A model generated the notes under the pieces. It was given only the letters and a program-made list of their open reading frames with translations. It had not been told where the DNA came from and did no database searches. From positions 8,370 to 72,369 of the forward strand of contig JACAEF010000024.1 of the NCBI GenBank assembly GCA_013388985.1: a stretch of DNA of 64,000 bases, in the 5' to 3' direction. This document shows, piece by piece, positions 7,169 through 61,850 of the stretch. Origin of the DNA: Rhodocyclaceae bacterium (GTDB lineage: Bacteria; Pseudomonadota; Gammaproteobacteria; Burkholderiales; Rhodocyclaceae). The first letter of the stretch is position 1, and every line of letters starts with the position of its first letter. A program made the translations under genes and the position numbers.

Positions 7169-7194
7169 GTGCCGTTCCGCCAGCGCCGACTTTC
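7169..7194 (+). repeat. Dispersed intergenic repeat, copy 1 (GTGCCGTTCCGCCAGCGCCGACTTTC)
   Basis: Read directly. One of 10 near-identical copies in the window. Lies between the divergent ppk and ppx starts. Confidence 0.85.
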
Positions 7195-7249
7195 TTGCAA
7201 GGCGCGTTTTCGGGGCTGCTAGAATTGCCGCACTGCACACAGGGACGGA

Positions 7250-8752
7250 TTGCCTATCGTGGTTCATGAACACGTCGCCGCCGTCGACATCGGATCCAAC
7301 AGTTTCCGCCTTCAGGTTGGACGCGTGGTCGGCAACCAGATCTATCCGCTCGACAGTCTCAAGGAGCCGGTGCGTCTGGCCGCCGGCCTGACCGCGGAGA
7401 AGTGGCTCGATGCCGCCGCGCAGCGGCGCGGCCTGGCGGCGCTGGCGCGTTTCGGCGAGCGTCTGCGCGGGTTCGCGCCCGAAGCCGTGCGCGCCGTCGC
7501 CACCAACACGCTGCGCGTGGCGCGCAATGCCGCCCAATTCCTCGCCCAGGCCGAGGCGGTGCTCGGCTTTCCGATCGAGGTGATCGCCGGCCGCGAGGAG
7601 GCGCGCCTGATCTATCTCGGCGTCGCCCATACCCTGCCCAGCCAGCGCATCCGGCATCTGGTCGTCGATATCGGCGGTGGCTCCACCGAGTTCATCATCG
7701 GCCGCAATCTCAAACCGCAGCAGCTCGAATCGCTCTACATGGGCTGCGTCGGTTACAGCCTGCGTTACTTTCCCGCGGGCCGCATCGACAAGCGCAACAT
7801 GAAAGAGGCCGAACTGGCCGCACGGCGCGAGCTGCAAACCATCGTGCATGCCTATCGCGCCACGGGCTGGGACCAGGCGGTGGGTTCGTCCGGGACGGCC
7901 AAGGCGATCTGCGATCTGCTCGAATTCAACGGCTTCGCCGCGGGCACCATCACTTACGACGGCCTCGAACGGCTGCGGCACCGCCTCGTGACGGCCGGCC
8001 ATGCCGCCAAGACCGGCCTGGCCGGCATGCGGCCGGATCGCGTGCCGGTGTTGCCGGGCGGCGTGGCGATCATGTCGGCCGTGTTCAAGGAGCTGGGACT
8101 CGAGGAAATGGTCTATTCCGAGGGCGCGCTGCGTCTGGGCGTGCTCTACGACCTGCTCGGCCGCTATCACCACGAGGACATGCGCGAGGCGACCGTCAAG
8201 CGCTTCATCCAGCGTTACGAGGTCGATCGCAGCCAGGCCGCGCGGGTGGCGACGACGGCGCTCGAGCTCTATCAGCAATTGCGGCCGCAGGAGGACATCG
8301 AGACTTCGCCGGCGGCGCAGTTCCTCGCCTGGGCGGCGCGCCTGCACGAGATCGGCGTTTCCGTCGCGCATACGAGCTATCACAAGCATAGCGCCTACAT
8401 CCTCGCCAATGCCGACATGCCGGGCTTCTCGCGCCGCGACCAGGCGCTGCTGGCGCGTCTCGTGCTCGCCCACCGCGGCAAGCTCGAACGGGTGCAGCCG
8501 CTGCCGCGGGAGGCGCCCGAGTGGCTGCTGATCTTCTGTCTGCGCATCGCCGCGCTGCTGCACCGCGCCCGTGACGACGCGCCCTTGCCGGAGCTCCACG
8601 CCCGTCTCGGCGCGAAGGGCTTCGAGCTGGCCCTCGACCGCGAATGGCTCGCCGAGGCGCCCCTGACGGCCACCGCGCTGGACGAAGAGGTCGAGCAATG
8701 GGCGAGCGTCGGTATCGGTTTCAGGGTGCGCGGCCTGCGCGCACCAGCCTGA
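7250..8752 (+). CDS. ppx: Exopolyphosphatase (Ppx/GppA family)
   Basis: ASKHA-fold motifs AAVDIGSNSFRL and VVDIGGGSTEF, 500 aa, divergent from ppk. The ORF starts at TTG, so the exact start is uncertain. Confidence 0.85.
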   Translation: MPIVVHEHVAAVDIGSNSFRLQVGRVVGNQIYPLDSLKEPVRLAAGLTAEKWLDAAAQRRGLAALARFGERLRGFAPEAVRAVATNTLRVARNAAQFLAQAEAVLGFPIEVIAGREEARLIYLGVAHTLPSQRIRHLVVDIGGGSTEFIIGRNLKPQQLESLYMGCVGYSLRYFPAGRIDKRNMKEAELAARRELQTIVHAYRATGWDQAVGSSGTAKAICDLLEFNGFAAGTITYDGLERLRHRLVTAGHAAKTGLAGMRPDRVPVLPGGVAIMSAVFKELGLEEMVYSEGALRLGVLYDLLGRYHHEDMREATVKRFIQRYEVDRSQAARVATTALELYQQLRPQEDIETSPAAQFLAWAARLHEIGVSVAHTSYHKHSAYILANADMPGFSRRDQALLARLVLAHRGKLERVQPLPREAPEWLLIFCLRIAALLHRARDDAPLPELHARLGAKGFELALDREWLAEAPLTATALDEEVEQWASVGIGFRVRGLRAPA

Positions 8753-8759
8753 TGCATCG

Positions 8760-9875
8760 ATGAATCCGGCGGGATTCGCGCTGCGGCGCGGCGAGGATGG
8801 CGCCGACGAGATCGTCCTCGAAGGGGCCTGGGTCCTGCGCGCGATCGTCGCCGCCGGACGTCCCTGGCTGGTGCGTCTGCAGGAGGTGGCGGCTGACAGG
8901 AACCTGCGCTGGAACGGCCTGGGCATCGAGGCGCTCGACTCGGCGGGGGCGGTGCTGCTCTGGCATCTTTGGGGACGGCGGCTGCCCGAAGCCTTGCTGC
9001 TCGCGCCGGGACATCGCGAGCTCTTCGCGCGTATCGCAGGCATCCCGAAGCCGCCGGGCGGAGGGCGAGAGCCCTATGCCTGGCTCGTCGCGCTTGGCCT
9101 AGCGAGCCTGTCGCTCGCGTGGCATGTGCGAGACTTCATCGTCCTCTTGGGGCAGCTCGTGCTGGATATGCTCCATCTGCTGCGCCATCCAAGCGATCTG
9201 CCGAAGCGGGAAATCTCGGCCAACATCTACAAGACGGGGGTGCGGGCGATGCCGGTCACGGCGCTGGTCGGCTTCCTGATCGGCGTGGTGCTCTCCTATC
9301 TGTCGGCCTTGCAGCTTCGGCAGCTGGGCGCGGACATGTTCATCGTCAACATCCTCGGCTTCGGCATCATCCGCGAGCTCGGCCCGCTCCTGGTCGCGGT
9401 GCTGGTCGCCGGCCGCTCGGGCTCGGCGATGACGGCCCAGCTGGGGGTGATGCGCGTCACCGAGGAAATCGATGCGCTGGTCGCGATGGGCGTGCCGCGC
9501 AGCCTGCGGCTGGTGTTCCCGAAAGTGGTGGCGCTGGCAGTCACCGTGCCGCTGCTGGTGGTGTGGACTTCCGGCATCGCGCTCGCCGGCGGCATGGTGG
9601 CGGCGAACTTCCAGCTCGACATCGGCTATGGCTTCTTTTTCGACGCGCTGCCGAAGGCGGTGCCGGTGGCGAACCTGTGGATCGGGCTGGTCAAGGGTTT
9701 CGCCTTCGGCGTGGCGATCGCCCTGGTGGCCTGCCATTTCGGCCTGCGCGTGCTGCCCAACACCGAGAGCCTGTCCTTCAACACCACGGCTTCGGTGGTC
9801 ACCGCGATCACGTTCGTGATCCTGATCGATGCGGTGTTCGCGATCGTCACGCGCACCATCGGCATGCCCCTATGA
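8760..9875 (+). CDS. MlaE/YrbE-family ABC permease with N-terminal STAS-like extension
   Basis: The C-terminal ~255 aa is MlaE-like (IRELGPLLVAVLVAGRSGSAMTAQLGVMRVTEEIDAL). The N-terminal ~110 aa is soluble and STAS-like. Confidence 0.8.
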   Translation: MNPAGFALRRGEDGADEIVLEGAWVLRAIVAAGRPWLVRLQEVAADRNLRWNGLGIEALDSAGAVLLWHLWGRRLPEALLLAPGHRELFARIAGIPKPPGGGREPYAWLVALGLASLSLAWHVRDFIVLLGQLVLDMLHLLRHPSDLPKREISANIYKTGVRAMPVTALVGFLIGVVLSYLSALQLRQLGADMFIVNILGFGIIRELGPLLVAVLVAGRSGSAMTAQLGVMRVTEEIDALVAMGVPRSLRLVFPKVVALAVTVPLLVVWTSGIALAGGMVAANFQLDIGYGFFFDALPKAVPVANLWIGLVKGFAFGVAIALVACHFGLRVLPNTESLSFNTTASVVTAITFVILIDAVFAIVTRTIGMPL

Positions 9876-10645
9876 GCAGCGATCCTCCCGTGGTCTCCAT
9901 CCGCGATCTTTCCACCCGGCTGGGCGGGCGCTGGATCCATCGCCATCTGGATCTGGAAATCAAACGCGGCGAGCGGGTGGCGCTGGTGGGCGATTCGGGC
10001 AGCGGCAAGACGACGCTGCTGCGGCAGATGATCGGTCTTCTGACGCCCACCGAAGGCGAGGTGCGCCTGTTCGGCGAACCGCTGTTCGGCGGGGGCGTGG
10101 CGCGCGAACGGGCGCTGCGGCAGCGTTTCGGCGTGCTGTTCCAGCAGGGGGCGCTGTTTTCCGCGTTCGACGTCTTCGCCAACATCGCCTTTCCGCTGCG
10201 AGAGTTGAAGACGCTCGACGAGGCGGTGATCCGCGACCTGGTGATGCTCAAGCTCGAAATGGTCGAGCTGCCCGCGCATGCCGCGCACCTGATGCCGGCC
10301 CAGCTCTCCGGCGGGATGATCAAGCGCGTCGCGCTGGCGCGCGCGCTTTCGCTCGAACCGGAACTCTTGCTGCTCGACGAACCCACTGCCGGCCTCGATC
10401 CCGACCTCTCCGAAGCCTTCGAGCGGCTGATCCGGAGCCTGTGCGAGCGGCTCGGTCTGACGGTGGTGTTCGTCACCCACGATCTCGATACCGTCGCTGC
10501 GCTCGCCAGCCGTGTCGCCGTGCTGGCGGAGCAGAGGATTCTCGCTTATGGGGCGATCGATGAGATCATGCGCATCGACCATCCCTTTGTGCATAATTTC
10601 TTCCATTCCACCCGGGGGCGCCATGCCTTTGCCGCGTTTCGCTGA
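9872..10645 (+). CDS. MlaF-like ABC transporter ATP-binding protein
   Basis: Walker A GDSGSGKTT, signature LSGGMIKRVALARAL, Walker B LLLLDEPTAGLDP. The ATG overlaps the upstream stop (ATGA). The upstream part of ORF 8969..10645 is a frame-shadow of the permease. Confidence 0.85.
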   Translation: MSSDPPVVSIRDLSTRLGGRWIHRHLDLEIKRGERVALVGDSGSGKTTLLRQMIGLLTPTEGEVRLFGEPLFGGGVARERALRQRFGVLFQQGALFSAFDVFANIAFPLRELKTLDEAVIRDLVMLKLEMVELPAHAAHLMPAQLSGGMIKRVALARALSLEPELLLLDEPTAGLDPDLSEAFERLIRSLCERLGLTVVFVTHDLDTVAALASRVAVLAEQRILAYGAIDEIMRIDHPFVHNFFHSTRGRHAFAAFR

Positions 10646-10654
10646 AGCCTGAAG

Positions 10655-11590
10655 ATGGAGAACCGTGCCCATGCGCTGCTGGCCGGCCTGTTCACGCTGG
10701 TCTTCCTGATCGCGGCCGCGCTGGCCGTCTGGTGGCTGGGCGGCAGCGGCGAAAAGACGCACGTCTATCTGCTGGAGACGCGCGGCAACGTCAGCGGCCT
10801 GAACCTCGAAGCGCAGGTGCGCTACCGCGGCATTCGCGCCGGCAAGGTCAAGGAGATCTATACCGATCCCGACGACCCAGCCAAGCTGCTGGTGAAGATC
10901 GTCCTCGGCCGCCAGTACCGGCTCACCGACAAAACCATCGCGCGCCTTGCCCATCAGGGCGTGACCGGCATCGCCTATGTGATGCTCGAAGAGGCCGGTT
11001 CGCAGGGTAAACCGCTCGAGCCGAACGACGCCGCGCCGCCCCGGCTGCCGCTGCAGCCGGGGCTGCTCGACAGCCTGGGACAGCGGGCGGGCGACATCAC
11101 CGGCCAGCTGGCCGAGCTCGTCACGCGCCTGAACCGGGTGTTCGACGAGCGCAACCTGCGCAACCTGCAGCAGGCGCTCGACAACCTCGCCGCGTCTTCC
11201 GAGAGCCTGAAAGCCCTGCCGGTGATCATGGCCAACCTGAAGAGCGCCCTGTCGCAGGAAAATCTCGGCCGCCTGAATGCGCTGCTCGCCCATCTCGAAA
11301 GCGCGACGGGCGAGGCGGCGCCGCTCGCCGCCGAAGCGCGGCGACTGGTGTCGACGCTCGATGGTCTGGCGCAGCGTCTCGACGCGCTGGCAGTGACGGC
11401 CGGCACGCTCGGCGAGCGTCTGGACGCCACGACCCTGCCCCGCGCCGAGCAGCTGATCCAGGAGGCCGCCGCCGCGACGCGCCGCCTCGACCGGCTGATC
11501 GAGATGCTCAACGACAGACCACAGGCTTTGTTGTTCGGTCCGCCCGCAGCAGTGCCCGGGCCGGGCGAGCGCGGCTTTGCAAAGGAATGA
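10655..11590 (+). CDS. MCE/MlaD-family periplasmic substrate-binding protein
   Basis: N-terminal TM anchor, MCE-domain-like segment (GLNLEAQVRYRGIRAGKVKEIY), and a long helical C-terminus. Sits after the MlaE/F-like genes. Confidence 0.75.
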   Translation: MENRAHALLAGLFTLVFLIAAALAVWWLGGSGEKTHVYLLETRGNVSGLNLEAQVRYRGIRAGKVKEIYTDPDDPAKLLVKIVLGRQYRLTDKTIARLAHQGVTGIAYVMLEEAGSQGKPLEPNDAAPPRLPLQPGLLDSLGQRAGDITGQLAELVTRLNRVFDERNLRNLQQALDNLAASSESLKALPVIMANLKSALSQENLGRLNALLAHLESATGEAAPLAAEARRLVSTLDGLAQRLDALAVTAGTLGERLDATTLPRAEQLIQEAAAATRRLDRLIEMLNDRPQALLFGPPAAVPGPGERGFAKE

Positions 11591-11594
11591 GACG

Positions 11595-12200
11595 ATGCGT
11601 CTATGGATGCTTGCGGTGATGGTGTTCCTGCTCGCCGGTTGCGTCGGCAGCACGCCCCGAGCCCCGGCGATCGCGCGACATGACCTCGGCGATCCTGCCG
11701 GCCGCTGGTCAGAGAACGCGATCGTGATCCGCGACGTGGAGGTGCGTGCCGCGCCGTGGCTCGATTCGCCGGCGCTGCTCTACCGGCTGGCCGATACGGC
11801 GCCGCTGCGTCGCCAGAGCTACGCCGAAAGCCGCTGGGTGGCGCCGCCGGGCGAATTGCTCGAACGCTGGCTGGAACGGCTCATCCTGCCGGTGCAGCCG
11901 GCCGGCGAGGCCAGTGGCGGCTGCCGCCTCGTCCTCTGGCTCGACGAGCTCGAACAGCGATTCGGGTCTCCCCGCGCGAGCGAGGTGGTGCTTTTCGCCC
12001 GCGCCGGCCTTTGGCGCGGCAAGCGCATCCTCGCCCAGCAGACGGTGCAGATCGTGCGGCCGGCGCCGACGCCGGACAGCGCCGGGGGGGTCCAGGCGAC
12101 GCGCGCGGCGGCGGAAGCGCTGGCCGAAGCGCTCGCGCAGTGGCTGGGCGAGCGCCGACAGCAGGAACCTGCACTCGTGTCGGTCTGCGCGGGGCGTTGA
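11595..12200 (+). CDS. ABC-transport auxiliary lipoprotein (DUF330/PqiC/YmbA-like)
   Basis: Signal peptide with lipobox (MRLWMLAVMVFLLAGC). Typical position after an MCE gene. RBS AAGGAA lies 7 nt upstream of the chosen ATG. Confidence 0.6.
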   Translation: MRLWMLAVMVFLLAGCVGSTPRAPAIARHDLGDPAGRWSENAIVIRDVEVRAAPWLDSPALLYRLADTAPLRRQSYAESRWVAPPGELLERWLERLILPVQPAGEASGGCRLVLWLDELEQRFGSPRASEVVLFARAGLWRGKRILAQQTVQIVRPAPTPDSAGGVQATRAAAEALAEALAQWLGERRQQEPALVSVCAGR

Positions 12201-12224
12201 AAGTCGGCGCTGGCGGCACGGCAC
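12199..12224 (-). repeat. Dispersed intergenic repeat, copy 2 (GTGCCGTGCCGCCAGCGCCGACTTTC on minus strand)
   Basis: Read directly. Fills the gap between the convergent stop codons at 12200 and 12235. Confidence 0.85.
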
Positions 12225-12234
12225 CCGCGCCGGT

Positions 12235-12600
12235 TCAGCGCCGCTTCTTTTCCAGCGCCGCGGCGGCCTGCTTCTTGGTCTTCGGCGCTGCCACCCTGCG
12301 GCGGCGGGGCTTCGGTGCTTCCTCGCCTTCGGGCTTCGGACGCCAGAGGATCAGGATGTTGCCGATGCTCTGCACCGGCGCGCAGTCGAGCTCGGCGCAG
12401 ATTTCGCTCAGCAGCGCGGCGCGGTCGTCGCGCTCGATGCCGTGGAGCTTGACCTTGATCAGCGCGTGGGCTTTGAGCGAGACGTCGATTTCCTTCAGGA
12501 CGTTCGGCGTCAGCCCATTGCCGGCGATCGCGACGGTGGGTTGCAGGTGATGCGCGGCGGCGCGCAAGGCGCGGCGCTCGGTGGGGGATAATTCGATCAT
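12235..12600 (-). CDS. yhbY: YhbY-like CRM-domain RNA-binding protein
   Basis: LRAAAHHLQPTVAIAGNGLTPNVLKEID...HALIKVKL pattern, basic C-terminal tail, and the conserved divergent position next to rlmE. Confidence 0.8.
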   Translation of the reverse strand: MIELSPTERRALRAAAHHLQPTVAIAGNGLTPNVLKEIDVSLKAHALIKVKLHGIERDDRAALLSEICAELDCAPVQSIGNILILWRPKPEGEEAPKPRRRRVAAPKTKKQAAAALEKKRR

Positions 12601-12613
12601 GGACGGATTCTAG

Positions 12614-13249
12614 ATGAGCTGGACGACGAAGCAGAAAAAAAAGAGCAAGGCGTGGATGCGCGAGCACGTCAATGATCCTTACGTGCAGCAGGCGCAGAAG
12701 GAGGGTTGGCGCTCGCGCGCGGTGTTCAAGCTCAAGGAGATCGACGAGAAGGATCATCTGCTCAAGCCCGGCATGACGGTCGTCGACCTGGGGGCCACAC
12801 CCGGCAGCTGGTGCCAGTATGCCGTGAAGCGCATCCAGCCCGGCGGGAGGATCATCGCCCTCGACCTCCTGGATTTCGCGCCGCTTCCCGGCGTCGAGTT
12901 CATCCAGGGCGATTTCCGCGACGCGGCGGTGCTGGAACGGCTGGAGTCGGCCCTGGCGGGACGGCAGGTCGACCTTGTTTTGTCCGACATGGCCCCCAAC
13001 ATGACGGGTATCGCGGCGACGGACAGCGCGCAGGTCCTTTATCTGGCCGAGCTGACGCTCGATTTCGCGCGTCGGCATCTGAAACCCGGTGGCGATCTGC
13101 TGGTCAAAGTTTTCCAAGGTGCCGGCTTCATGGAGCTGCGGCGTGAGATGCAGGCGGCCTTCGAGACGCTGGCGACGCGCAAGCCGGCCGCATCGAGGGA
13201 TCGCAGCGCGGAGTTGTACCTGCTGGCGAGAAAGAAGCGGTTGACATAG
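12614..13249 (+). CDS. rlmE: 23S rRNA 2'-O-ribose (U2552) methyltransferase RlmE/FtsJ
   Basis: [36 protein letters not shown] (FtsJ SAM-binding region), 211 aa, upstream of ftsH. Confidence 0.9.
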
Positions 13250-13284
13250 AATCGGCCGCGATCGTGTGAAAGAGAGGCAAGCGC

Positions 13285-15171
<1,887 letters not shown>

Positions 15172-15229: not shown

Positions 15230-15255
15230 GTGCCGTCCCGCCAGCGCCGAATTTT
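15230..15255 (+). repeat. Dispersed intergenic repeat, copy 3 (GTGCCGTCCCGCCAGCGCCGAATTTT)
   Basis: Read directly. Lies 59 nt after the ftsH stop and 15 nt before the next start. Confidence 0.85.
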
Positions 15256-19190: not shown

Positions 19191-19216
19191 GTGCCGTGTC
19201 GCCAGCGCCGACTTTC
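19191..19216 (+). repeat. Dispersed intergenic repeat, copy 4 (GTGCCGTGTCGCCAGCGCCGACTTTC)
   Basis: Read directly. Lies between the hypothetical-gene stop (19232) and the binding-protein start (19122). Confidence 0.85.
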
Positions 19217-19231: not shown

Positions 19232-20401
19232 TTACTCAGCCGGCCACTGGGCAGTGGCGATGCCCGTGCCGAGATCGGCCTCGACCAGCCGGCGGCGCAC
19301 TTCGAGCAATTGTTCGAGCAGTGCCGGCTCGCTGCGGGCGTAGGCCGCCGCATCCGGCACCCGCTTGACGACCACGCCGAGCAGCTCGGTGATCGCGTTG
19401 CCGATCGAGTTCTGGCTGATCGTCACGATCAGATCGCCGTTGTCATTGCGATAGATGAGTTGCTTGAAGGCCGGCTGCCAGCGGATCGCATTCGCATATT
19501 TCGCATCCTTGATGCAACGGTCGCGCACCATCTTCGCCGCCTTGAGGAAGTCGTTGTCGAACAGCAGCTTCTCCTCGACGAGGGTCGGGAAATGCAAATC
19601 GCGCGGCGGCGGCGAATTGCGCGTGCTCACCTGGCCGAAGAAGGTGCGGTAGAAGTCGAGGAAGCCCTTGAGCAGCGTGTCGTAGTCGCGCCAGAACGCC
19701 ACTTCCCTGAGCGCCGCCGCGCCGCCGGGCACGCCCCAGCTCGGCAGGCCCTGCGGATAGCCGGTGAGCGAGAGGCGGCATTCGCCCTTGTCGCAGGGCT
19801 TGAGGATGCGGAAATCGAGCGCGTCGAAGAAGGCGCGATAGACCTCGCGCATGTGGGCCTGGAACAGCGAGTTCTGGCCGCCGTCGGTCAGGTTCGGGTT
19901 GTTCGGGTCGGCCAGGGGCGCGGCGGCGAGCTCGTGCTTGTCGAAGACCATGAAATGGTTGTGCAGCATGCGGATCGAGGGCACGCCGGGCGAGGTGAGC
20001 GGCCAGGTGGCATCGAGACTCGCTTCGCCGGCGAGCAGCAGATACCGTTCGGGATCGGGATAGCGTTCCAGCATGAAGGCGATGAGGATCTGGTTCATCC
20101 GGTTCCAGACATGCTTGACGGCATCGGGCACCTGGGTGCGCCTCACCGGTCGGCCGAGCGGGTCGAGGATCTGCTGCGAGGTGTTGTAGATGATCGAGGT
20201 GTCGAACAGGTTGCTGTGGCCGAGCGCCTTGCGATACAGCAGCAGCCCTTCCGGGTTCTGCAGCAGGCCGTTGTTGTGCACCAGGTCGTTGAGATTCTCG
20301 GCGCTGTTGAAGAACTCGTTCGGCGCCATGCCCTCCGGCACCTCGAGGGGAATGGGACGGAACGGGGTGACGATTTCGCGTGGACCGCACTGGGGGGACA
20401 T
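19232..20401 (-). CDS. Hypothetical protein, 389 aa, no family recognised
   Basis: Long ORF with normal amino-acid composition for this genome, unlike the Arg/Ala/Pro-rich shadow ORFs. Contains a ...SIRMLHNHFMVF... (HxHx) segment. No signal peptide or TM helices seen. Confidence 0.6.
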   Translation of the reverse strand: MSPQCGPREIVTPFRPIPLEVPEGMAPNEFFNSAENLNDLVHNNGLLQNPEGLLLYRKALGHSNLFDTSIIYNTSQQILDPLGRPVRRTQVPDAVKHVWNRMNQILIAFMLERYPDPERYLLLAGEASLDATWPLTSPGVPSIRMLHNHFMVFDKHELAAAPLADPNNPNLTDGGQNSLFQAHMREVYRAFFDALDFRILKPCDKGECRLSLTGYPQGLPSWGVPGGAAALREVAFWRDYDTLLKGFLDFYRTFFGQVSTRNSPPPRDLHFPTLVEEKLLFDNDFLKAAKMVRDRCIKDAKYANAIRWQPAFKQLIYRNDNGDLIVTISQNSIGNAITELLGVVVKRVPDAAAYARSEPALLEQLLEVRRRLVEADLGTGIATAQWPAE

Positions 20402-20522: not shown

Positions 20523-22991
20523 ATGAACGAACTGCCTCCGCCCACGGGCCTGAGCCGGCTCGAGGCCGCGCAACGCCTTGCCCGTCATGGCCCCAACCGG
20601 CTGCAGCCGCACCGTGAGCGTGCACTGCTGGTGCAGTTCGTGCTGCGTTTTCGCAATCCGCTCGTCCTCATCCTGCTCGCGGCGAGCTTCGTCACCGCTT
20701 TGACGGGCGATGCCGCCGGCGCGGCCATCATCGGCGTCATCGTATTGATGAGCGTCACGCTGGACTTCGTGCAGGAATACCGTGCCGGCCGGGCGGCGGA
20801 GCGTCTGGCCCAGCGGGTCGCGGTGACCGCGACCGTGCTGCGCGATGGCGCGCTGCGCGAAGTGCCGGTCGTCGAGATCGTACCCGGCGACGTGGTGAGG
20901 CTGACGGCCGGCGACCTGGTGCCTGCCGACGGCCGGGTGCTCGAAGCGCGCGACTTCTTCGTCAACCAGGCGCAGCTCACCGGCGAGCCGTATCCGGTGG
21001 AAAAACGCGCCGTCGCTGGCGAGGCAGCCGGCGACGAGGCTGCCGTGTTCATGGGCAGCTCGGTGGTGAGCGGCGCGGCCACCGTGCTGATCGAGCGCAC
21101 CGGCCCGGCCACGGAACTGGGCAGGATCGCCGACAGCCTCGACCGTGCACCGCCGCCGACGGCCTTCGAGCGCGGCACGCGCCATTTCGGCATGCTGATC
21201 ATGCGCCTCACCATGCTGTTGGTGCTGTTTACGTTGCTGGTCAATCTCGCCTTCGCGCGCCCACTCCTGGAATCCTTCCTGTTCGCGGTGGCGCTGGCCG
21301 TGGGCCTGACACCCGAGCTGCTGCCGATGGTCGTCTCCGTTACGCTGGCGCGCGGTGCGCAGCGCATGGCGGCGCGGCAGGTGATCGTCAAGCGCCTCTC
21401 CGCGATCCAGGACATGGGGGCGATGGACGTGTTGTGCACCGACAAGACCGGCACGCTGACCGAAGCGAAGATCCGTCTCGAACGGCACATCGACGCCACC
21501 GGCCAGCCCAGTCAGCGGGTGCTGGAACTCGCTTACCTCAACAGCCTTTTCGAAAGCGGCCTGAAAAGCCCGCTCGACGAGGCCATCCTCGCGCATGGCG
21601 AGATCGACGTTGCCGGCTGGCGCAAGGTGGACGAAGTGCCGTTCGATTTCGAGCGCCGCCGCGTCTCGGTGCTGGCGGAGAAGGACGGCGGCCGCATCCT
21701 GGCGGTGAAAGGCGCCCCGGAAGACATCCTGGCGCTCTCCACCGCGTATGAGATGGCCGACGGCACGATCGTTCCGCTCACCGAGACTGCGCGCGAGCGT
21801 ATCGCCGCGGTGTTCGAGGCCCTGGGCGACGAGGGCTTCCGCGCGCTGGGCATCGCCTGGCGCGCGGTGCCGCCCGATCATCCGCATGCCGTGGTCACCG
21901 ACGAGACGGAGCTCACCTTCGCCGGCTTCGCCGCCTTTCTCGATCCGCCCAAGGCCAGCGCGGCGGCGGCGATCGCGCATCTGGCCAAGAGCGGCGTGGC
22001 GGTGAAGATCCTCACCGGCGACAACGAGCGCGTCACGCGCCACGTCTGCAGGGAGCTTGCCATTCCCGTCACCGGCGTGCTCACCGGGCAGGAGATCGCG
22101 CAGCTGGGCGACGAGGCGCTCGACGCGCGGGTGGATGAGGTCAATCTCTTCTGCCGCGTCACGCCGGCGCAGAAAAACCGCATCCTGCTCGCGCTCAAGC
22201 GCCGCGGCCACGCGGTCGGCTATCTCGGCGACGGCATCAACGACGCGCCGTCGCTGCACACCGCCGACGTCGGCATCTCGGTCGATGGCGCGGTGGATGT
22301 CGCGCGCGAGGCCGCCGATCTGGTGCTGCTCTCACACGATCTCGACGTGCTCCACGACGGCATCCGCGAGGGCCGGCGCACTTTCGGCAACGTGATGAAG
22401 TACATCATGATGGCCACCAGCTCCAATTTCGGCAACATGTTCAGCATGGCCGCGGCGACGCTGTTCCTGCCCTTCCTGCCGATGTTGCCGATGCAGATCC
22501 TGCTCAACAACCTGCTCTACGACGTCTCGGAAATCCCGCTGCCGCTCGATCGCGTCGATGCCGAGGAATTGGCGCGGCCGCGCCGCTGGGACATGGGCTT
22601 CATCCGCAACTTCATGCTCGCCGTCGGGCCGGTGAGCTCGCTGTTCGATTTCTTCACCTTCTATCTGCTGATGGTCGTGCTCGAAGCCAGCGAGACGCTG
22701 TTTCGCACCGGCTGGTTCGTCGAGTCCATCGCCACGCAGGTGCTGGTGATCTTCGTCATCCGCACGCGCCGCAATCCGCTACTGAGCCGCCCGCATCCCG
22801 CGCTGGCGCTCACCTCGCTGGGCGTGGTGGGCCTGGCGCTGCTGCTACCCTTCACGCCGCTGGCCGGCCTGCTGGGCTTCACCCCGCTGCCGCCGCTGTT
22901 CTTCCTGCTGCTGGCCGGTCTGCTCGTCGCCTATCTGTGCCTGGTCGAGCTGGTCAAGCGCCGCTTCTTTCATCGCCTGGGGATGGCGTGA
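20523..22991 (+). CDS. mgtA: Mg2+-importing P-type ATPase (MgtA/MgtB type)
   Basis: P-type motifs DKTGTLT, TGDN, GDGINDAP. The N-terminus GLSRLEAAQRLARHGPNRL and the C-terminal TM block (NLLYD.SE) are typical of the MgtA family. 822 aa. Confidence 0.8.
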   Translation: MNELPPPTGLSRLEAAQRLARHGPNRLQPHRERALLVQFVLRFRNPLVLILLAASFVTALTGDAAGAAIIGVIVLMSVTLDFVQEYRAGRAAERLAQRVAVTATVLRDGALREVPVVEIVPGDVVRLTAGDLVPADGRVLEARDFFVNQAQLTGEPYPVEKRAVAGEAAGDEAAVFMGSSVVSGAATVLIERTGPATELGRIADSLDRAPPPTAFERGTRHFGMLIMRLTMLLVLFTLLVNLAFARPLLESFLFAVALAVGLTPELLPMVVSVTLARGAQRMAARQVIVKRLSAIQDMGAMDVLCTDKTGTLTEAKIRLERHIDATGQPSQRVLELAYLNSLFESGLKSPLDEAILAHGEIDVAGWRKVDEVPFDFERRRVSVLAEKDGGRILAVKGAPEDILALSTAYEMADGTIVPLTETARERIAAVFEALGDEGFRALGIAWRAVPPDHPHAVVTDETELTFAGFAAFLDPPKASAAAAIAHLAKSGVAVKILTGDNERVTRHVCRELAIPVTGVLTGQEIAQLGDEALDARVDEVNLFCRVTPAQKNRILLALKRRGHAVGYLGDGINDAPSLHTADVGISVDGAVDVAREAADLVLLSHDLDVLHDGIREGRRTFGNVMKYIMMATSSNFGNMFSMAAATLFLPFLPMLPMQILLNNLLYDVSEIPLPLDRVDAEELARPRRWDMGFIRNFMLAVGPVSSLFDFFTFYLLMVVLEASETLFRTGWFVESIATQVLVIFVIRTRRNPLLSRPHPALALTSLGVVGLALLLPFTPLAGLLGFTPLPPLFFLLLAGLLVAYLCLVELVKRRFFHRLGMA

Positions 22992-23046: not shown

Positions 23047-23072
23047 GTGCCGTATCGCCAGCGCCGACCTCA
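23047..23072 (+). repeat. Dispersed intergenic repeat, copy 5 (GTGCCGTATCGCCAGCGCCGACCTCA)
   Basis: Read directly. Lies 56 nt after the mgtA stop and 37 nt before the rhodanese start. Confidence 0.8.
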
Positions 23073-23109: not shown

Positions 23110-24039
23110 ATGCGTCACTTCGTCACTTTGCTACTTGCGCTCTTCATGACAATGACCGGCGGTGCACGCGCCGCCGAGAGGCCGGATTTCCTCGTCGACG
23201 CCGATTGGCTCGCCGAACGCATCCGGGATCCGAAACTGGTCGTGCTCGAAGTGCGCTACCACCCGCATCGTTACTTCACGATCGGTCACGTTCCCGGCGC
23301 GATCCAGGTGCAGCGTTTTGCCGACCTCGGCGCCAACGACAAACTGCCGATCATGAAATTTCCCTCGCGCGAGGTCTTTCAGGCGACCTTGCGACGCTGG
23401 GGCGTGAATGATGATTCGATCATCGTCGTCTATGACGATTCGGTCTCCGCGCTGGCGTCGCGCGTGCTGTTCCTGCTCGACCTCTACGGCTTCGATATGA
23501 AGCGCGTCAAGCTGCTCGACGGAGGCACGGTCGGCTGGACCGGTTTCAACGAACTCGACAAGACTCCGACGCCGCCCAAGCCCCTCGGCAAGGTGACGCT
23601 CAAGCCGGCCGATCCGAAACGGCTGGTCGCTTGGCCCGAGGTCTATCGGCGCGTGGTGGCCGAGCGCGATGCAAAGGTCACGCTGATCGACGCGCGGCCC
23701 ACCGAGATGTATGAGGGCAGCCGTATTCAGCATTCAGTGCAGGGCGGCCACATCCCGGGCGCGATCAACATCGTCAGCTTGCAAGGAGTCGATGGCCAAT
23801 CGCAGCAATGGAAATCTCTCGACGAGCTGGCGAAGCTCTATCAAGCGGTGCCGAAAGACCATACCGTCATCACTTATTGCCACGATGGCTTCCGCTCGAC
23901 GCTGGCCTGGTTACAGTTGAAGGCGCTCGGTTACGCGGAGGTGCGCGTCTATGACGGCGGCTGGGGTGATTGGGACCGCACGCTAACGCTGCCGGTCGTC
24001 AAGGGCGGCAAACCCTTCGACGCCGATTTCGAGCTGTAG
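23110..24039 (+). CDS. Periplasmic two-domain rhodanese (thiosulfate / 3-mercaptopyruvate sulfurtransferase-like)
   Basis: Signal peptide MRHFVTLLLALFMTMTGGARA, tandem rhodanese domains, catalytic loop ITYCHDGFRST in the second domain. Confidence 0.8.
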   Translation: MRHFVTLLLALFMTMTGGARAAERPDFLVDADWLAERIRDPKLVVLEVRYHPHRYFTIGHVPGAIQVQRFADLGANDKLPIMKFPSREVFQATLRRWGVNDDSIIVVYDDSVSALASRVLFLLDLYGFDMKRVKLLDGGTVGWTGFNELDKTPTPPKPLGKVTLKPADPKRLVAWPEVYRRVVAERDAKVTLIDARPTEMYEGSRIQHSVQGGHIPGAINIVSLQGVDGQSQQWKSLDELAKLYQAVPKDHTVITYCHDGFRSTLAWLQLKALGYAEVRVYDGGWGDWDRTLTLPVVKGGKPFDADFEL

Positions 24040-32339: not shown

Positions 32340-32365
32340 GAAAATCGGCGCTGGCGAGACGGCAG
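32340..32365 (-). repeat. Dispersed intergenic repeat, copy 6 (CTGCCGTCTCGCCAGCGCCGATTTTC on minus strand)
   Basis: Read directly. Lies between the A1 stop (32211) and the preferred TorD-like start (32389). Confidence 0.8.
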
Positions 32366-36255: not shown

Positions 36256-36281
36256 GTGCCGTCTCACCAGCGCCGACTTTG
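36256..36281 (+). repeat. Dispersed intergenic repeat, copy 7 (GTGCCGTCTCACCAGCGCCGACTTTG)
   Basis: Read directly. Exactly fills the 27-nt gap between the convergent stops of the two oxidoreductase operons. Confidence 0.8.
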
Positions 36282-36282
36282 C

Positions 36283-47072: not shown

Positions 47073-47098
47073 GTGCCGTCCCGCCAGCGCCGACTTTG
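47073..47098 (+). repeat. Dispersed intergenic repeat, copy 8 (GTGCCGTCCCGCCAGCGCCGACTTTG)
   Basis: Read directly. Lies 45 nt after the regulator stop and 19 nt before the OsmC-like ATG. Confidence 0.85.
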
Positions 47099-49946: not shown

Positions 49947-49972
49947 GTGCCGTCCCGCCAGCGCCGATTTCT
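49947..49972 (+). repeat. Dispersed intergenic repeat, copy 9 (GTGCCGTCCCGCCAGCGCCGATTTCT)
   Basis: Read directly. Lies between the convergent stops of glmM (49934) and dgkA (49979). Confidence 0.85.
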
Positions 49973-52303: not shown

Positions 52304-52380
52304 CGGGGTGTAGCGCAGCCCGGTAGCGCGCTTGCTTTGGGAGCAAGATGTCGGGGGTTCGAATCCCTCCACCCCGACCA
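52304..52380 (+). tRNA. tRNA-Pro (anticodon UGG)
   Basis: Hand-folded cloverleaf: acceptor CGGGGTG/CACCCCG, D-arm GCGC..GCGC, anticodon arm CTTGC-TTTGGGA-GCAAG, T-loop TTCGAAT, encoded CCA. Confidence 0.9.
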
Positions 52381-52408
52381 GGCGCCTTGCCCCGTACCGT
52401 TTGACGGA

Positions 52409-52485
52409 CCGCCCGTAGCTCAACCGGATAGAGCACCGGCCTTCTAAGCCGGGGGTTACAGGTTCGAGTCCTGTCGGGCGGGCCA
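52409..52485 (+). tRNA. tRNA-Arg (anticodon UCU)
   Basis: Hand-folded: acceptor CCGCCCG/CGGGCGG, D-arm GCTC..GAGC, anticodon arm CCGGC-CTTCTAA-GCCGG, T-arm ACAGG-TTCGAGT-CCTGT, encoded CCA. The 5' end could be off by 1 nt. Confidence 0.85.
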
Positions 52486-52496
52486 GTTTTCGAGGT

Positions 52497-52573
52497 GGTG
52501 GACGTAGCTCAGTTGGTAGAGTCCCGGATTGTGATTCCGGTCGTCGTGGGTTCGAGTCCCATCGTCCACCCCA
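52497..52573 (+). tRNA. tRNA-His (anticodon GUG)
   Basis: Hand-folded with the His-specific extra G(-1): G-GTGGACG...CGTCCAC-C-CCA. Anticodon arm CCGGA-TTGTGAT-TCCGG. Confidence 0.9.
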
Positions 52574-54826: not shown

Positions 54827-54868
54827 CGCCTTGAGCTTGACAAGGCTGGCGCGATTGAGCATACAATT

Positions 54869-54882
54869 CAAACGTTCGTTTA
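54869..54882. promoter_or_regulatory. PsrA-type operator-like site CAAAC-GTTC-GTTTA upstream of the beta-oxidation operon
   Basis: Read directly, 17 nt upstream of the GTG start at 54899. Confidence 0.45.
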
Positions 54883-54898
54883 ATAAGGAGGGAGTGGA

Positions 54899-57295: not shown

Positions 57296-57297
57296 CA

Positions 57298-58494
57298 ATG
57301 AGCAAACAGATTCAAGATGCCTACATCGTCGCTGCCAAACGGTTGCCGGTGGCGAAGAAGAACGGCATGTTCCGTTACGTGCGGCCCGATGACATGCTTG
57401 CCCAGGCGATCCGCACGGTGGTCGCGGAAGTGCCGCAATTCGACCCGGCGCGCATCGGCGACGTCATCGTCGGCTGCGCGATGCCCGAGGCCGAGCAGGG
57501 CATGAACGTCGCGCGCATCGGCCTGCTGCTCGCCGGCCTGCCGGTTTCGGTGCCGGGGATGACGATCAACCGCTTCTGCGCCTCGGGCTTGCAGGCGGTC
57601 GCCGATGCCGCGAACCAGATCCGCCTCGGCCTGGCCGATGTGATGGTCGCGGCGGGCACCGAGTCGATGACCATCATGCCGCAGATGATGGGCAACAAAG
57701 TGGCGATGAACCCCGCCGTGTTCTCCGACGAGAACGTCGGCATCGCTTTTGGCATGGGGCTCACTGCCGAGAACGTCGCGGCGCGCTGGAAAGTCTCCCG
57801 CGAGGATCAGGACGCCTTCGCGCTCGAATCGCATCGCCGCGCGCTGGCGGCGATCGCCGCCGGGCATTTCAAGGCGGAGATCACGCCTTATCCGGTGCGC
57901 GAGCATCTTCCGGATCTGGCAACGGGCGAGGTGAAGCTGCGGGAATTCGTCGCCGAGAACGATGAAGGGCCGCGCGCCGACAGCTCGCTGGAAAAGCTCG
58001 CGAAACTGAAGCCGGTGTTCCATGCGAAGGGATCGGTCACGGCGGGCAATTCCTCGCAGATGTCGGATGGCGCGGCGGCGGTGCTGCTGATGTCCGAGCG
58101 GGCGCTGAAGGAAACCGGCGCCACGCCGCTGGCGCGCTTCGTCGGCTATGCGGTGGCGGGCGTCGAACCCGAGATCATGGGCATCGGGCCGATCGCGGCG
58201 ATTCCGAAGGTATTGGCGCAGACCGGCGTGAAGCAGGAGGAGCTCGACTGGATCGAGCTCAACGAAGCCTTCGCGGCGCAGTCGCTGGCGGTGATCCGCG
58301 AGCTCGGCCTCGACCCGGCGAAGGTGAACCCGCTGGGCGGCGCGATCGCCCTCGGACATCCGCTCGGCGCCACCGGCGCGATCCGCACCGCGACCGTCGT
58401 GCATGGCCTGAGGCGCACGTCCGCCCGCTATGGCATGGTGACGATGTGCATCGGCACCGGCATGGGGGCGGCGGGAGTCTTCGAGCGCATCTGA
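57298..58494 (+). CDS. fadA: Acetyl-CoA C-acyltransferase (3-ketoacyl-CoA thiolase)
   Basis: Active-site [38 protein letters not shown] lies 3 nt after the upstream stop. Confidence 0.9.
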
Positions 58495-58621
58495 GCTTCG
58501 GGCCGATGTCAGACCAGGTTGGCTTGGGTGCCTGCCGCCGCATGGCTCCTGCGGGTCGGGCGGTCGGGCACATCCGCTCCATCGCCTGCCAAGAACATCA
58601 TCGACGAATAGGAGGAGGAGC

Positions 58622-59200
58622 ATGCGAAACGCCCGGCGGATGATGCAGACCGTGTTGTTCGCGGCGAGCCTGGCCATCGCGAATGCGGCGATGGCGCTCG
58701 ACGTGGCAGGCGTCAAGGTCGAAGAACGTGTCCAAGTCGCGGGCAAGGAGCTGGCGCTCAATGGCGCCGGCCTTCGCACCCGGCTGTTCTTCAAGGTCTA
58801 TGTCGCGGCGCTGTATGCCGAGAAGCCGAGCAAGGATGCGACCGTGCTGATCGCCGGGCCGGGAAGCCGGCGCATCGTCATGACGATGCTGCGCGAGCTC
58901 GATGCCGAGACGCTCCAGGGCGCGCTCGAAGAGGGCTTGCGCAACAATCTGACGGAAGCCGAACGGGCGGCGCTCAAGCCGTCGATCGAGGCGCTGGGGA
59001 CGGCGATGCGCTCGATCGGCAAGGTTGTGCCGGGTGATACCGTGACGCTCGATTTTTCGGGCGAAGGTCTGTCCATTGCCTACAATGGCTCGCCCCGTGG
59101 CAAGATCGCCGATGAGAGGATCGGCCCGGCGGTGCTGAAGGTCTGGCTCGGCGAAAAACCAGCCGAGGAGGCACTCAAGCAGGCGCTGCTCGGCCGCTGA
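58622..59200 (+). CDS. Secreted chalcone-isomerase-like (CHI-fold, fatty-acid-binding-type) protein
   Basis: Signal peptide ...LAIANAAMA. LNGAGLRTRLFFKVYVAALY is the characteristic CHI-like family segment. Confidence 0.6.
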   Translation: MRNARRMMQTVLFAASLAIANAAMALDVAGVKVEERVQVAGKELALNGAGLRTRLFFKVYVAALYAEKPSKDATVLIAGPGSRRIVMTMLRELDAETLQGALEEGLRNNLTEAERAALKPSIEALGTAMRSIGKVVPGDTVTLDFSGEGLSIAYNGSPRGKIADERIGPAVLKVWLGEKPAEEALKQALLGR

Positions 59201-59225
59201 TCCCCGTGAGAGGAGGAGAGGGACG

Positions 59226-60884
59226 ATGGACAAGGTCTGGTTGAGGAGCTATCCGCCGGGCGTGCCGGCAGAGATCGATCCGGCGCGCTTTGCGAGCGTC
59301 GCGGCGCTGTTTGCCGAGTCTTGCGAGAAATTCGCCGAAAAAACCGCTTATCTGTCGATGGGCAAGGGTATCGGCTATCGCCAGTTGCATGCCGATGCGC
59401 AGGCCTTCGCCGGCTGGTTGCAGTCGCGCGGGGTGAAGAAGGGCGACCGCGTCGCGCTGATGATGCCCAACGTGCTGCAGTATCCGGTGGCGCTGTTCGG
59501 CACGCTGCTCGCCGGCGCGGTGGTGGTCAATTGCAACCCGCTCTACACGCCGCGCGAGCTCGAACACCAGCTCAAGGATTCCGGCGCGACGACGATCGTG
59601 ATCCTGGAAAACTTCGCCCACACGCTGCAGGCGGTGCTCGACAAGACTGCGGTGCGCAATGTCGTCGTCACCTCGCTCGGCGAGATGCTGGGCGTGAAGG
59701 GCCTGATCGTCAATTTCGTCGTGCGCCATGTCAAGAAGCTCGTGCCGGCCTGGCGTCTGCCGCAGGTGATCGACTTTCGCCGCGCACTGGCCGAGGGCAG
59801 GCGCCAGGGCTTTGGCGCCGTGCCGCTCGGTCATGACGATCTCGCTTTCCTGCAATACACGGGCGGCACCACCGGTATCTCGAAAGGCGCGATGCTCACC
59901 CACGGCAACATCTGCGCCAACGTGCTCCAGGCGCATGCCTGGATTCAGGGCGATCTCGAAGAGGGCAAGGAAGTCATCGTCACCGCGCTGCCGCTCTATC
60001 ACATCTTCGCGCTGACCGCGAACTGCCTGACTTTCGTGCTGATGGGCGCGCGCAACGTGCTGATCGCCAACCCGCGCGACATTCCGCATTTCGTCAGGGA
60101 GTGGGCGAAACATCCGGTCTCGGTGGTCACCGGCGTCAATACGCTGTTCAATGCGCTGCTGAACAACGAGGCATTCCGCAAGCTCGATTTCTCGACGATG
60201 AAGGTGACGCTCGGCGGTGGCATGGCGGTGCTGAAAGCGACGGCCGATCGCTGGCGCGAAGTGGTCGGCGTGCCGCTGATCCAGGCCTACGGTCTGACCG
60301 AGACTTCGCCGGCGGCGACGATCAATCCACTGAACCTGACCGAGTTCAACGGCTCGATCGGCCTGCCGATCTCCTCGACCGAGGTCTCGATCCGCGCCGA
60401 CGACGGTCACGAAGTGCCGCTCGGCCAGGTCGGCGAGATCTGTATCCGCGGCCCGCAGGTGATGAAGGGTTACTGGCAGCGGCCGGACGAGACCGCCAAC
60501 GTGCTGCTGCCGGACGGTTTCCTGCGCACCGGCGATCTCGGCTATGTCGATGCCAACGGCTTCGTCTATCTGGTGGATCGCAAGAAGGACATGATCCTGG
60601 TTTCGGGCTTCAACGTCTTCCCGAACGAAGTCGAGGAAGCGGTGGCCCAGCATCCGGGCGTGCTCGAGGCGGCGGCGATCGGCGTGCCCGACGAGCATTC
60701 GGGCGAGGCGGTGAAGATCTTCGTCGTGCGCAAGGACCCGAACCTTACCGCCGAGGAGCTGATCGCCCACTGCCGGCAGCTGCTCACCGGCTACAAGGTG
60801 CCCAAGCACGTCGAGTTTCGCGCCGATCTGCCGAAGACCAATGTCGGCAAGATTTTGCGCCGGGCGCTGAAGGAGCAGGGCTGA
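59226..60884 (+). CDS. fadD: Long-chain-fatty-acid--CoA ligase
   Basis: AMP-binding motifs LQYTGGTTGISKGAMLTHGN, AYGLTETSP, LRTGDLGYVDANGFVYLVDRKKDMI, and the terminal ...PKTNVGKILRR. Confidence 0.9.
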   Translation: MDKVWLRSYPPGVPAEIDPARFASVAALFAESCEKFAEKTAYLSMGKGIGYRQLHADAQAFAGWLQSRGVKKGDRVALMMPNVLQYPVALFGTLLAGAVVVNCNPLYTPRELEHQLKDSGATTIVILENFAHTLQAVLDKTAVRNVVVTSLGEMLGVKGLIVNFVVRHVKKLVPAWRLPQVIDFRRALAEGRRQGFGAVPLGHDDLAFLQYTGGTTGISKGAMLTHGNICANVLQAHAWIQGDLEEGKEVIVTALPLYHIFALTANCLTFVLMGARNVLIANPRDIPHFVREWAKHPVSVVTGVNTLFNALLNNEAFRKLDFSTMKVTLGGGMAVLKATADRWREVVGVPLIQAYGLTETSPAATINPLNLTEFNGSIGLPISSTEVSIRADDGHEVPLGQVGEICIRGPQVMKGYWQRPDETANVLLPDGFLRTGDLGYVDANGFVYLVDRKKDMILVSGFNVFPNEVEEAVAQHPGVLEAAAIGVPDEHSGEAVKIFVVRKDPNLTAEELIAHCRQLLTGYKVPKHVEFRADLPKTNVGKILRRALKEQG

Positions 60885-61825
60885 TGCCGGTTCCTGCCGC
60901 TTTGGCGAAAAATCTGGCGCTGCCGGTGATCGGCGCGCCGATGTTCATCGTCTCGACGCCGGCGCTGGTGATCGCCCAGTGCAAGGCCGGCATCATCGGT
61001 GCTTTCCCCGCCCTCAATGCGCGACCGGCGGAGAAGCTGGATGAGTGGCTGACGACGATCGAGGCGGCGCTCGGCGATGGCCAGGCGGCTGCCTACGCGG
61101 TGAATCTGATCGTGCATCCGACCAACGAGCGGCTCGAGGCCGATCTCGCCGCCTGTGTCGCCCATCGCGTGCCGCTGGTGATCACCAGCTTAGGCAAGCC
61201 GAGCGCGATCGTCGCCGCGGTGCATGGCTATGGCGGCCTGGTGTTCCATGACGTGACCAATGTGCGTCATGCCGAGAAGGCGCTCGAAGCCGGCGTCGAC
61301 GGTCTGATCCTGGTCGCGGCCGGCGCCGGCGGGCATGGCGGAACCTCGAGCCCCTTCGCGCTGGTGGCCGAGGTGCGGCGCTTCTACGAGGGCCCGCTGG
61401 CGCTGGCGGGCGCGCTCACGCAGGGTCGGCAGATCCTCGCCGCGCAGGCGCTGGGCGCCGATTTCGCCTATCTCGGCACACGCTTCATCGCCACGCAGGA
61501 GGCCAACGCCAGCGCCGACTACAAGCAGGCGATCCTCGCCGCCCGGAGTGATGACATCGTCTATACGCCGTATTTCACCGGCGTGCCCGGTAATTACCTG
61601 AAGAGCAGCATCGTCCGCGCCGGCCTCGATCCCGAGCGGCTGCCTTCCGGTCACGGGCCGAAACTTGAATTCACGCGCGCCACCGAGGGCGCCAAGGCCT
61701 GGCGCGACATCTGGGGCGCCGGCCAGGGGGTGGGCGCGATCGACGACATCCCGAGCGCCGCGGTACTGATCGCGCGGCTGAAAGACGAATTCCAACAGGC
61801 ACGGACCTCGCTGTGTGGGCGTTGA
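60884..61825 (+). CDS. Nitronate monooxygenase / FabK-like FMN oxidoreductase (NMO family)
   Basis: PVIGAPMFIVSTPALVIAQCKAGIIGAF and LILVAAGAGGHGG. ATG overlaps the fadD stop. Confidence 0.75.
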   Translation: MPVPAALAKNLALPVIGAPMFIVSTPALVIAQCKAGIIGAFPALNARPAEKLDEWLTTIEAALGDGQAAAYAVNLIVHPTNERLEADLAACVAHRVPLVITSLGKPSAIVAAVHGYGGLVFHDVTNVRHAEKALEAGVDGLILVAAGAGGHGGTSSPFALVAEVRRFYEGPLALAGALTQGRQILAAQALGADFAYLGTRFIATQEANASADYKQAILAARSDDIVYTPYFTGVPGNYLKSSIVRAGLDPERLPSGHGPKLEFTRATEGAKAWRDIWGAGQGVGAIDDIPSAAVLIARLKDEFQQARTSLCGR

Positions 61826-61850
61826 TGCCGTCCCGCCAGCGCCGATTTTT
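61825..61850 (+). repeat. Dispersed intergenic repeat, copy 10 (ATGCCGTCCCGCCAGCGCCGATTTTT)
   Basis: Read directly. Starts at the last base of the NMO stop codon and lies 32 nt upstream of the next ATG. Confidence 0.85.

Follow-up and report, generated by a model that had tools for sequence, protein, structure and literature searches.

A 24-nucleotide asymmetric word shared among Rhodocyclaceae genomes is a candidate DNA uptake sequence

In a 64,000-nucleotide (nt) stretch of contig JACAEF010000024.1 from a Rhodocyclaceae bacterium (assembly GCA_013388985.1; positions 8,370 to 72,369, hereafter the window) a 24-nt asymmetric word is repeated between and within genes. We conclude that this word is a signature of double-stranded DNA that extends genome-wide and is shared by a clade of the family, and that it is best explained as an undescribed sequence of the uptake-signal type. 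By analogy with the known uptake sequences, the word most likely acts to enhance DNA uptake in one group of Rhodocyclaceae lineages, a reading to which we assign a probability of about 0.5. A preliminary description of the window had reported ten copies of a repeat and had listed several candidate roles; its overall interpretation was partly supported.

The window was searched with the pattern GTGCCGTNNCRCCAGCGCCGA, allowing up to 3 mismatches, and 100 dinucleotide-preserving shuffles of the window served as background. Eleven matches were obtained, ten strong and one degenerate, compared to a mean of 0.20 and a maximum of 2 in the shuffled sequences. All ten copies reported earlier were recovered at the same coordinates and on the same strands, and the judgement that their frequency is far above chance held. 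As a full set, however, the ten were incomplete, as the degenerate copy on the minus strand inside rlmE had been missed. In the list of direct repeats drawn up for the window, whose G+C content ranges from 59 to 68% and whose GC skew is positive throughout, the word was the sole multi-copy family of near-identical copies. A sequence logo built from 123 non-redundant copies revealed the block TGCCGT-(C)(C)-CGCCAGCGCCGA-CTTT, and on both sides of it the columns dropped directly to background composition, confirming the abrupt ends and unrelated flanks of the preliminary description. The conserved block may thus be written (T)GCCGT-NNN-GCCAGCGCCGA-CTTT. When matching was relaxed, the leading G/T and the first T were weakly conserved and the core began at GCCGT. 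In the logo the CTTT tail was retained in 80-89% of the copies even though it was absent from the search pattern. The word is solitary, spans about two helical turns, has some 20 near-invariant positions and contains a stop codon in none of its six reading frames. No internal dyad or hairpin was found in it, and in the 60 nt on either side the longest complementary run equalled that of shuffled-flank controls, in line with the earlier statement that no convincing hairpin is present.

DNA outside the window was followed on ENA contig-100_2, a same-species metagenome contig of 260 kb in which the window occupies record positions 150428-214427. Over 108.9 contiguous kb there were 21 copies, about one per 5.2 kb, of which eight lay in genes, with an orientation of 14:7. 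The 44 kb flanking the window contributed ten further copies (up to 3 mismatches), and seven of these were located inside called genes, namely those for DUF1841, DNA-deoxyinosine glycosylase (a perfect copy), an ABC-F ATPase, a FixJ-like regulator, DeaD, PurM, and AcnB. The earlier claim that all copies sit at gene boundaries consequently applies to the ten copies of the window only, and the same is true for the reported 8:2 orientation bias, which weakened to 14:7 over the longer region and to 34:28 in other genomes. To the right of the window, 9 kb of TCA-cycle genes contained no copy, and the spacing of copies over 109 kb was not clearly more even than random (estimated coefficient of variation approximately 0.75). 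Extrapolation from these figures gives several hundred copies in the whole genome.

The word is not confined to this species. Among the matches listed for species-representative genomes, more than 111 stretches contained the exact pattern and nearly all of them were from Rhodocyclaceae, including Methyloversatilis, Sulfuritalea, Sulfurisoma, Propionivibrio, Azonexus, and Rugosibacter as named carriers, plus many metagenome-assembled genomes (MAGs). The same list held a few single matches in hot-spring Burkholderiales (Tepidicella, Tepidimonas) and a few tail-less matches in Streptomyces and others, the latter attributable to chance. Our own estimate from base composition was approximately 2.5 expected chance matches in the whole family. 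In approximately 760 kb of related tiles, 221 copies were counted at up to 4 mismatches and none in shuffled sequence. The scan of related genomes proposed in the preliminary description thus showed that many Rhodocyclaceae carry the word. Nearest to the window were Methyloversatilis MAGs: L073 (L-numbers are labels of the compared loci or contigs) displayed 74-89% nucleotide identity over aligned blocks of about 7 kb in total (window 2233-11958), and the RlmE of L171 was 86% identical to that of the window. The window itself recurs nearly unchanged in hot-spring and subsurface metagenomes, and the sequencing runs containing it were DNA runs only. Four metagenome runs held near-identical strains and yielded no useful microdiversity; many foreign contigs in these runs matched the window over only 25 nt, at 12200-12224.

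Orientation was compared with both replication and transcription. In tiles with significant GC skew the copies were distributed 34:28, in-gene copies were 30 sense and 30 antisense, and those between tandem genes 13:11. Its orientation is therefore independent of both replication and transcription. On these counts three earlier proposals find no support: the T-rich end does not preferentially face genes, the sense/antisense parity speaks against a transcribed motif of the untranslated region (UTR), and the 34:28 ratio against a polar chromosome-organising signal. Convergent spacers held 23 copies and divergent spacers 7, an excess expected from a preference for the least constrained DNA. A polar signal resembling Chi or the FtsK-orienting polar sequences (KOPS) was also considered. 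The reverse complement of the word contains GCTGGCGG (GCTGGTG in the A variant), one mismatch from the Chi sequence of E. coli, GCTGGTGG. Chi sequences are 5-8 nt long and strongly co-oriented with replication, and this candidate was ruled out by the ratios against GC skew and over 109 kb; the strand resembling Chi is, within the window, mostly the wrong one.

In the relatives, about half of the exact copies were located in long open reading frames (ORFs) with coding-type periodicity in third-position G+C (GC3). Four frames were used, antisense KVGAGGTA (23 copies), sense AVPPAPT (15), antisense KSALAGRQ (13), and sense CRxASADF (11), whereas the two Arg-rich frames were avoided with 2 copies each. 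Four housekeeping proteins were aligned with homologues of solved structure: RlmE encoded at window copy 12947 with 1EIZ (E. coli FtsJ), PheT of L102 with 4P71, Dxs of L017 with 8A29, and AcnB of this genome, in which a perfect copy encodes LAKVGAGETACP, with 1L5J (LAAIAKGEAKSP). All four alignments were ungapped across the copy, while an inserted 24-25 nt would add eight codons or shift the frame, and we therefore infer that the copies arose by substitution and not by insertion. As far as the alignments tell, they have been written by point substitution into tolerant protein linkers. Such an origin removes models based on repetitive extragenic palindromic (REP) sequences, miniature inverted-repeat transposable elements (MITEs) and every other kind of insertion, and it places the constraint on the DNA and not on protein or RNA.

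It follows that an insertion-type repeat (a REP or bacterial interspersed mosaic element (BIME) spread by a REP-associated tyrosine transposase (RAYT), a MITE, or a solo terminal repeat) is scarcely credible as an explanation, and we grade an RNA element (terminator or UTR motif) the same. Like REP/BIME and MITEs the word is short, dispersed and, in the window, mostly extragenic, and its GC-rich block followed by a T run superficially resembles half a terminator. Those elements, however, are palindromes or bear terminal inverted repeats, multiply by insertion and differ from one species to another, whereas the word has neither palindrome nor partner arm, lacks target duplications and conserved flanks, enters genes without an indel, is equally common in sense and antisense, and is the same across genera. 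The preliminary description had already set it apart from REP/BIME, terminator and MITE repeats, and the length-neutral in-gene copies strengthen that distinction. An Rfam comparison had also been suggested; Rfam 15 at the gathering threshold gave no match for the word in the 64-kb window. What it did match were three tandem tRNA genes on the plus strand at 52304-52570 (RF00005), over which simple ORF calling had erroneously put minus-strand ORFs.

Maintenance of the word was visible at orthologous sites. The copies at the 3' end of yhbY, within rlmE and 3' of ftsH were kept in the window, L031, and L171, and the surrounding spacer could not be aligned. At the rlmE site, where the window copy is degenerate, L031 and L171 have a perfect copy at the same codons. 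The distance from the ftsH stop to the copy is 60 nt in the window vs. 13 nt in L171, and in more distant relatives ftsH is followed by a conventional hairpin terminator, without a copy. In 80 metagenome rlmE loci, strong copies at the three orthologous sites were found only in L171, the closest, and a handful of loci had weak matches. In 80 rlmE loci of other lineages, the 8-kb tiles were too short for a scan of over-represented 12-mers to reveal dialect words. Two occurrences of the 12-mer GCCGTTCTTCAG were noted in each of L198, L201, and L248, which are rlmE loci of other Betaproteobacteria; this 12-mer may be conserved coding sequence or a word over-represented in another lineage.

Retention of this kind could reflect binding of an abundant chromosomal protein with a role other than uptake (nucleoid protein, roadblock at convergent gene ends, or global regulator), each site being kept by its own selection. 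The preliminary description had named a protein-binding site among its candidates, and that part stands in so far as an uptake sequence would itself be one; a site of non-uptake function is a competing explanation, and we regard it as unlikely. The word is sharply bounded, asymmetric, about two helical turns long and ends in a T-tract, like a protein footprint, it occupies gaps of 27-44 nt that separate convergent genes and lack a terminator, and it is kept at orthologous spacer sites. Per-site selection is nevertheless improbable for some 20 positions at hundreds of sites that include unrelated housekeeping genes and four reading frames. Orthologous loci of slightly more distant relatives lack the word, phage structural and packaging genes contain it, and no rule relates its orientation to genes.

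Site-by-site selection is implausible for hundreds of near-identical 24-mers, and a molecular drive is therefore needed. Copies made by substitution, shared across genera, free of polarity, and present in spacers and genes alike render such selection even less plausible. We favour DNA uptake because uptake bias was the only described drive of this kind that we found in the literature searched. According to the proposed mechanism, a putative surface receptor, by analogy a minor pilin of a type IV pilus, would bind the word, and fragments that carry it would be taken up preferentially during natural transformation. If these fragments then recombined with the chromosome, uptake bias and recombination together could constitute a molecular drive by which point mutations creating or improving the word would spread. 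The word would be predicted to accumulate where sequence is permissive, in short spacers, especially convergent ones, and in tolerant protein linkers. The binding protein, the DNA uptake and the competence of the host are all putative elements of this scheme.

Uptake sequences are known only from Neisseriaceae and Pasteurellaceae, and the hallmarks of the DNA uptake sequence (DUS) and the uptake signal sequence (USS) comprise occurrence in genes as well as spacers, accumulation in permissive regions, frame bias, and dialects (10.1101/2025.10.24.684340). Over-representation, sharing within a clade with unrelated flanks, location in both spacers and coding sequence, and independence of orientation, by which DUS and USS are recognised, were all found for the word. 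Of the roles proposed in the preliminary description, the uptake-signal-like one is hence favoured by the evidence. In the literature search no paper mentioned the word, and none described Rhodocyclaceae as having an uptake sequence. Approximately 6.5-8.3 kb to the left of the window, L251:18128-19942 encodes an assembly ATPase of type IV pili (NF053534 TfpB, 915 bits, cutoff 850); its gene stands alone between the DUF1841 and DNA-deoxyinosine glycosylase genes, both of which have an in-gene copy. The motif-bearing relative L105 encodes a PilA-like pilin. With respect to minor pilins, only one PilA-like pilin was found among all compared loci, no dedicated homology search for ComP having been made.

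The DUS of Neisseriaceae (AT-DUS ATGCCGTCTGAA and its dialects, received by the type IV minor pilin ComP) is likewise hyper-abundant, non-palindromic and common to a family-level clade. It also occurs in spacers and genes, accumulates in permissive sequence and lacks strand polarity, and both hosts are Betaproteobacteria. The 5' block TGCCGTC equals positions 2-8 of the meningococcal AT-DUS (P approximately 0.019 against composition-matched random 24-mers), a match that is a lead and not an argument for membership. DUS differ in having 10-12 nt vs. 24 nt here, in often forming inverted-repeat terminators vs. single copies here, and in that the present word occurs also in phage contigs and in an accessory block. 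The word lacks the CTG core of DUS, which Frye et al. in 2013 reportedly found to be invariant. The USS of Pasteurellaceae (the Hin type is AAGTGCGGT, flanked by AT-rich segments, and ComN/PpdA is its predicted receptor) shares with the word a long footprint, a GC-rich core followed by an A/T tract, and many in-gene copies in preferred reading frames. The extended USS measures approximately 29 nt. With one gap and one mismatch allowed, the 3' block GCCGACTTT looks like the USS core in reverse complement (ACCGCACTT), a likeness that is not significant alone (P approximately 0.10). The hosts of USS belong to another family and class, and USS has 9 core positions with weak flanks vs. some 20 near-invariant positions here. 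That the word is a third, unusually long uptake signal of some Rhodocyclaceae lineages with an evolutionary relationship to both DUS and USS seems quite unlikely.

Several observations weigh against a role in uptake. Distribution in the family is patchy, and at amino-acid identities of 77% or lower most of the Rhodocyclaceae-like rlmE loci are without a copy. The literature search found no paper or experiment demonstrating natural competence in Methyloversatilis, Sulfuritalea or their relatives. At 24 nt with about 20 near-invariant positions the word exceeds the 9-12-nt cores of DUS and USS, and the 60-nt search found no inverted-repeat terminator pairs, which are frequent though not obligatory in DUS. 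One copy per 5 kb is approximately 4-5 times below the density of classical DUS and USS, which is roughly 1 per kb. Finally, DUS are depleted from recently acquired DNA, and the word may not be, as it is found inside a 32.6-kb block absent from L171 and in viral contigs.

These viral contigs numbered 59 in a pattern scan of IMG/VR, and most of their copies had the CTTT tail. They raise the alternative that the word is the packaging (pac) site of Rhodocyclaceae phages or of a gene-transfer agent, and that the chromosomal copies are pac mimics favoured by transduction bias. Phage P22 has an asymmetric pac of about 22 bp that lies within its small-terminase gene (terS). The word, similar to P22-type pac in its asymmetry and length (22-25 bp), was found approximately 230-260 nt into the small-terminase gene (phrog_57) of four contigs (L142:8140, L151:8892, L116:752, and L156:5622) and at the 3' end of the large-terminase gene of three. 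The terS copies, however, differ in orientation and frame, being antisense in L142 and L116 and sense (AVPPAPT) in L156, and they are located in a low-complexity Pro/Ala-rich linker; for these reasons they resemble gains made independently at a permissive place and not a conserved pac. Most phage copies are elsewhere, in genes for methyltransferase, Mu-type transposase, portal, primase, tail-fibre, and anti-repressor proteins, some contigs have 2-4 copies where one per phage would be expected of pac, and the host chromosome has hundreds by extrapolation. We consider this alternative very improbable. One IMG/VR contig, L120 (JGI sample 3300009945), contains at 629-2303 a non-coding tandem array of five 316-nt units with one motif copy each. 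The same metagenome sample also holds a contig of the window's species, and the motif-flanking part of the 316-nt unit recurs in Tepidicella xavieri (L015).

The word could also be a recombination or integration site, either an att-like target of a recombinase (host or mobile) or a 25-bp patch of identity for homology-driven exchange of cassettes, and blocks of genes would then come and go at the copies. In support of this, three structural differences were found between this genome and its nearest relatives, and each of them touches a copy. Between ftsH and folP, a block of 32.6 kb (window 15096-47717) that contains a modABC operon, Mo-oxidoreductase operons, sigma-54 regulators, and osmC is absent from L171, where ftsH, one copy, and folP follow one another (L171:3065-3186). 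Same-strand copies lie at its left edge (15230) and near its right edge (47073). Secondly, the gene for a PAS/PAS/GAF/HD-GYP-type signalling protein (2971-4875, minus strand) is absent from L073, and the empty site there has a full copy (L073:7212-7342 vs. window 2813-5040); besides the possible truncated copy listed in Table 1, the window may retain GCGCCGATCTTC at 4923-4934. Thirdly, the L073 orthologue of copy 7169 is split by a perfect tandem insertion of 2 x 93 nt (L073:4898-5083), with GGCGCCGAC repeated at the junctions. The 93-nt unit contains a CCCCCCACAGGGGGGG hairpin, its end is a shortened motif copy in inverted orientation (GTCGGCTTGGGACGGC), and a piece related to the unit adjoins a motif copy in L017. 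The junctions are unclean, though, with osmC lying between copy 47073 and the resumption of L171 homology, and the six ORFs scanned at the block edges include no integrase or transposase by Pfam, two of them having little or no match. Nor do substitution-derived copies within essential genes mark the boundaries of cassettes. Indels and copies both collect in spacers, and we roughly estimate the probability of coincidence at a few per cent for the block alone. A role in recombination or integration is in our judgement decidedly unlikely and is kept as a secondary property; the 25-bp patch of identity could well act as a recombination anchor.

The copies in the window are compiled in Table 1. 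Three of them occupy the gaps between convergent stop codons, as described before and now confirmed from the ORF table. Where a copy directly adjoins a gene of the other strand, the tail plus CA (CTTTCA, which is TGAAAG on the other strand) supplies the TGA stop of that gene. The resulting overlap of motif and gene end is 1-3 nt, and was observed at window 12198-12224 and in L045, L082, L104, and L109.

Table 1. Copies of the word in the 64-kb window and their genetic context.
Feature	Position	Strand	Context and remarks
Possible truncated copy, GTGCCGTCC followed by unrelated sequence	2910..2918	+	Weak: 9 nt kept; full copy at this site in L073
Copy, GTGCCGTTCCGCCAGCGCCGACTTTC	7169..7194	+	Divergent spacer between ppk (-) and ppx (+)
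Copy	12199..12224	-	Fills 34-nt gap between convergent stops of ABC_trans_aux lipoprotein gene and yhbY; T-tail overlaps TGA of + strand gene; same site in L031 and L171, flanks unalignable
Degenerate copy	12943..12967 (pattern match 12947-12967)	-	Within rlmE; 2 mismatches, tail CTCC for CTTT
Copy	15230..15255	+	About 58-60 nt past ftsH stop, 16 nt before helix-turn-helix (HTH) gene
Copy	19191..19216	+	Between stop of 389-aa gene (19232-20401, -) and start of modA (-); antisense to both
Copy, tail CCTC	23047..23072	+	Between stop of 822-aa gene at 22991 and start at 23110
Copy, CTGCCGTCTCGCCAGCGCCGATTTT	32340..32365	-	About 130 nt past stop of 879-aa gene
Copy, A variant (..TCTCACCAGC..)	36256..36281	+	Motif makes up entire 27-nt gap between convergent stops (36256-36282)
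Perfect consensus copy	47073..47098	+	45 nt past stop of sigma-54 activator gene, 8 nt before osmC
Copy	49947..49972	+	44-nt gap between convergent stops of glmM and diacylglycerol-kinase gene
Copy, ATGCCGTCCCGCCAGCGCCGATTTTT	61825..61850	+	Directly 3' of stop of NMO-family gene; about 30 nt before acyl-CoA dehydrogenase start called in L257, 24 nt before GTG of window ORF at 61874

If the word does serve as an uptake signal, sequence-specific self-recognition in transformation would be more general than thought. The two families with described uptake sequences are host-associated, and this third example would stem from bacteria that live freely in hot springs, groundwater, and wastewater. Should it moreover be related to both DUS and USS, recognition of self-DNA by type IV pili would be ancient and widespread in environmental Proteobacteria and not peculiar to two host-associated families. 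An uptake signal would also provide a new 24-nt receptor-DNA recognition pair to dissect, and adding the word to constructs might permit transformation of Methyloversatilis or Sulfuritalea. The word would serve as a marker that assigns metagenomic contigs and phages to their hosts. Even without uptake, a 24-mer written into housekeeping genes needs a drive at the level of DNA, which would itself be new.

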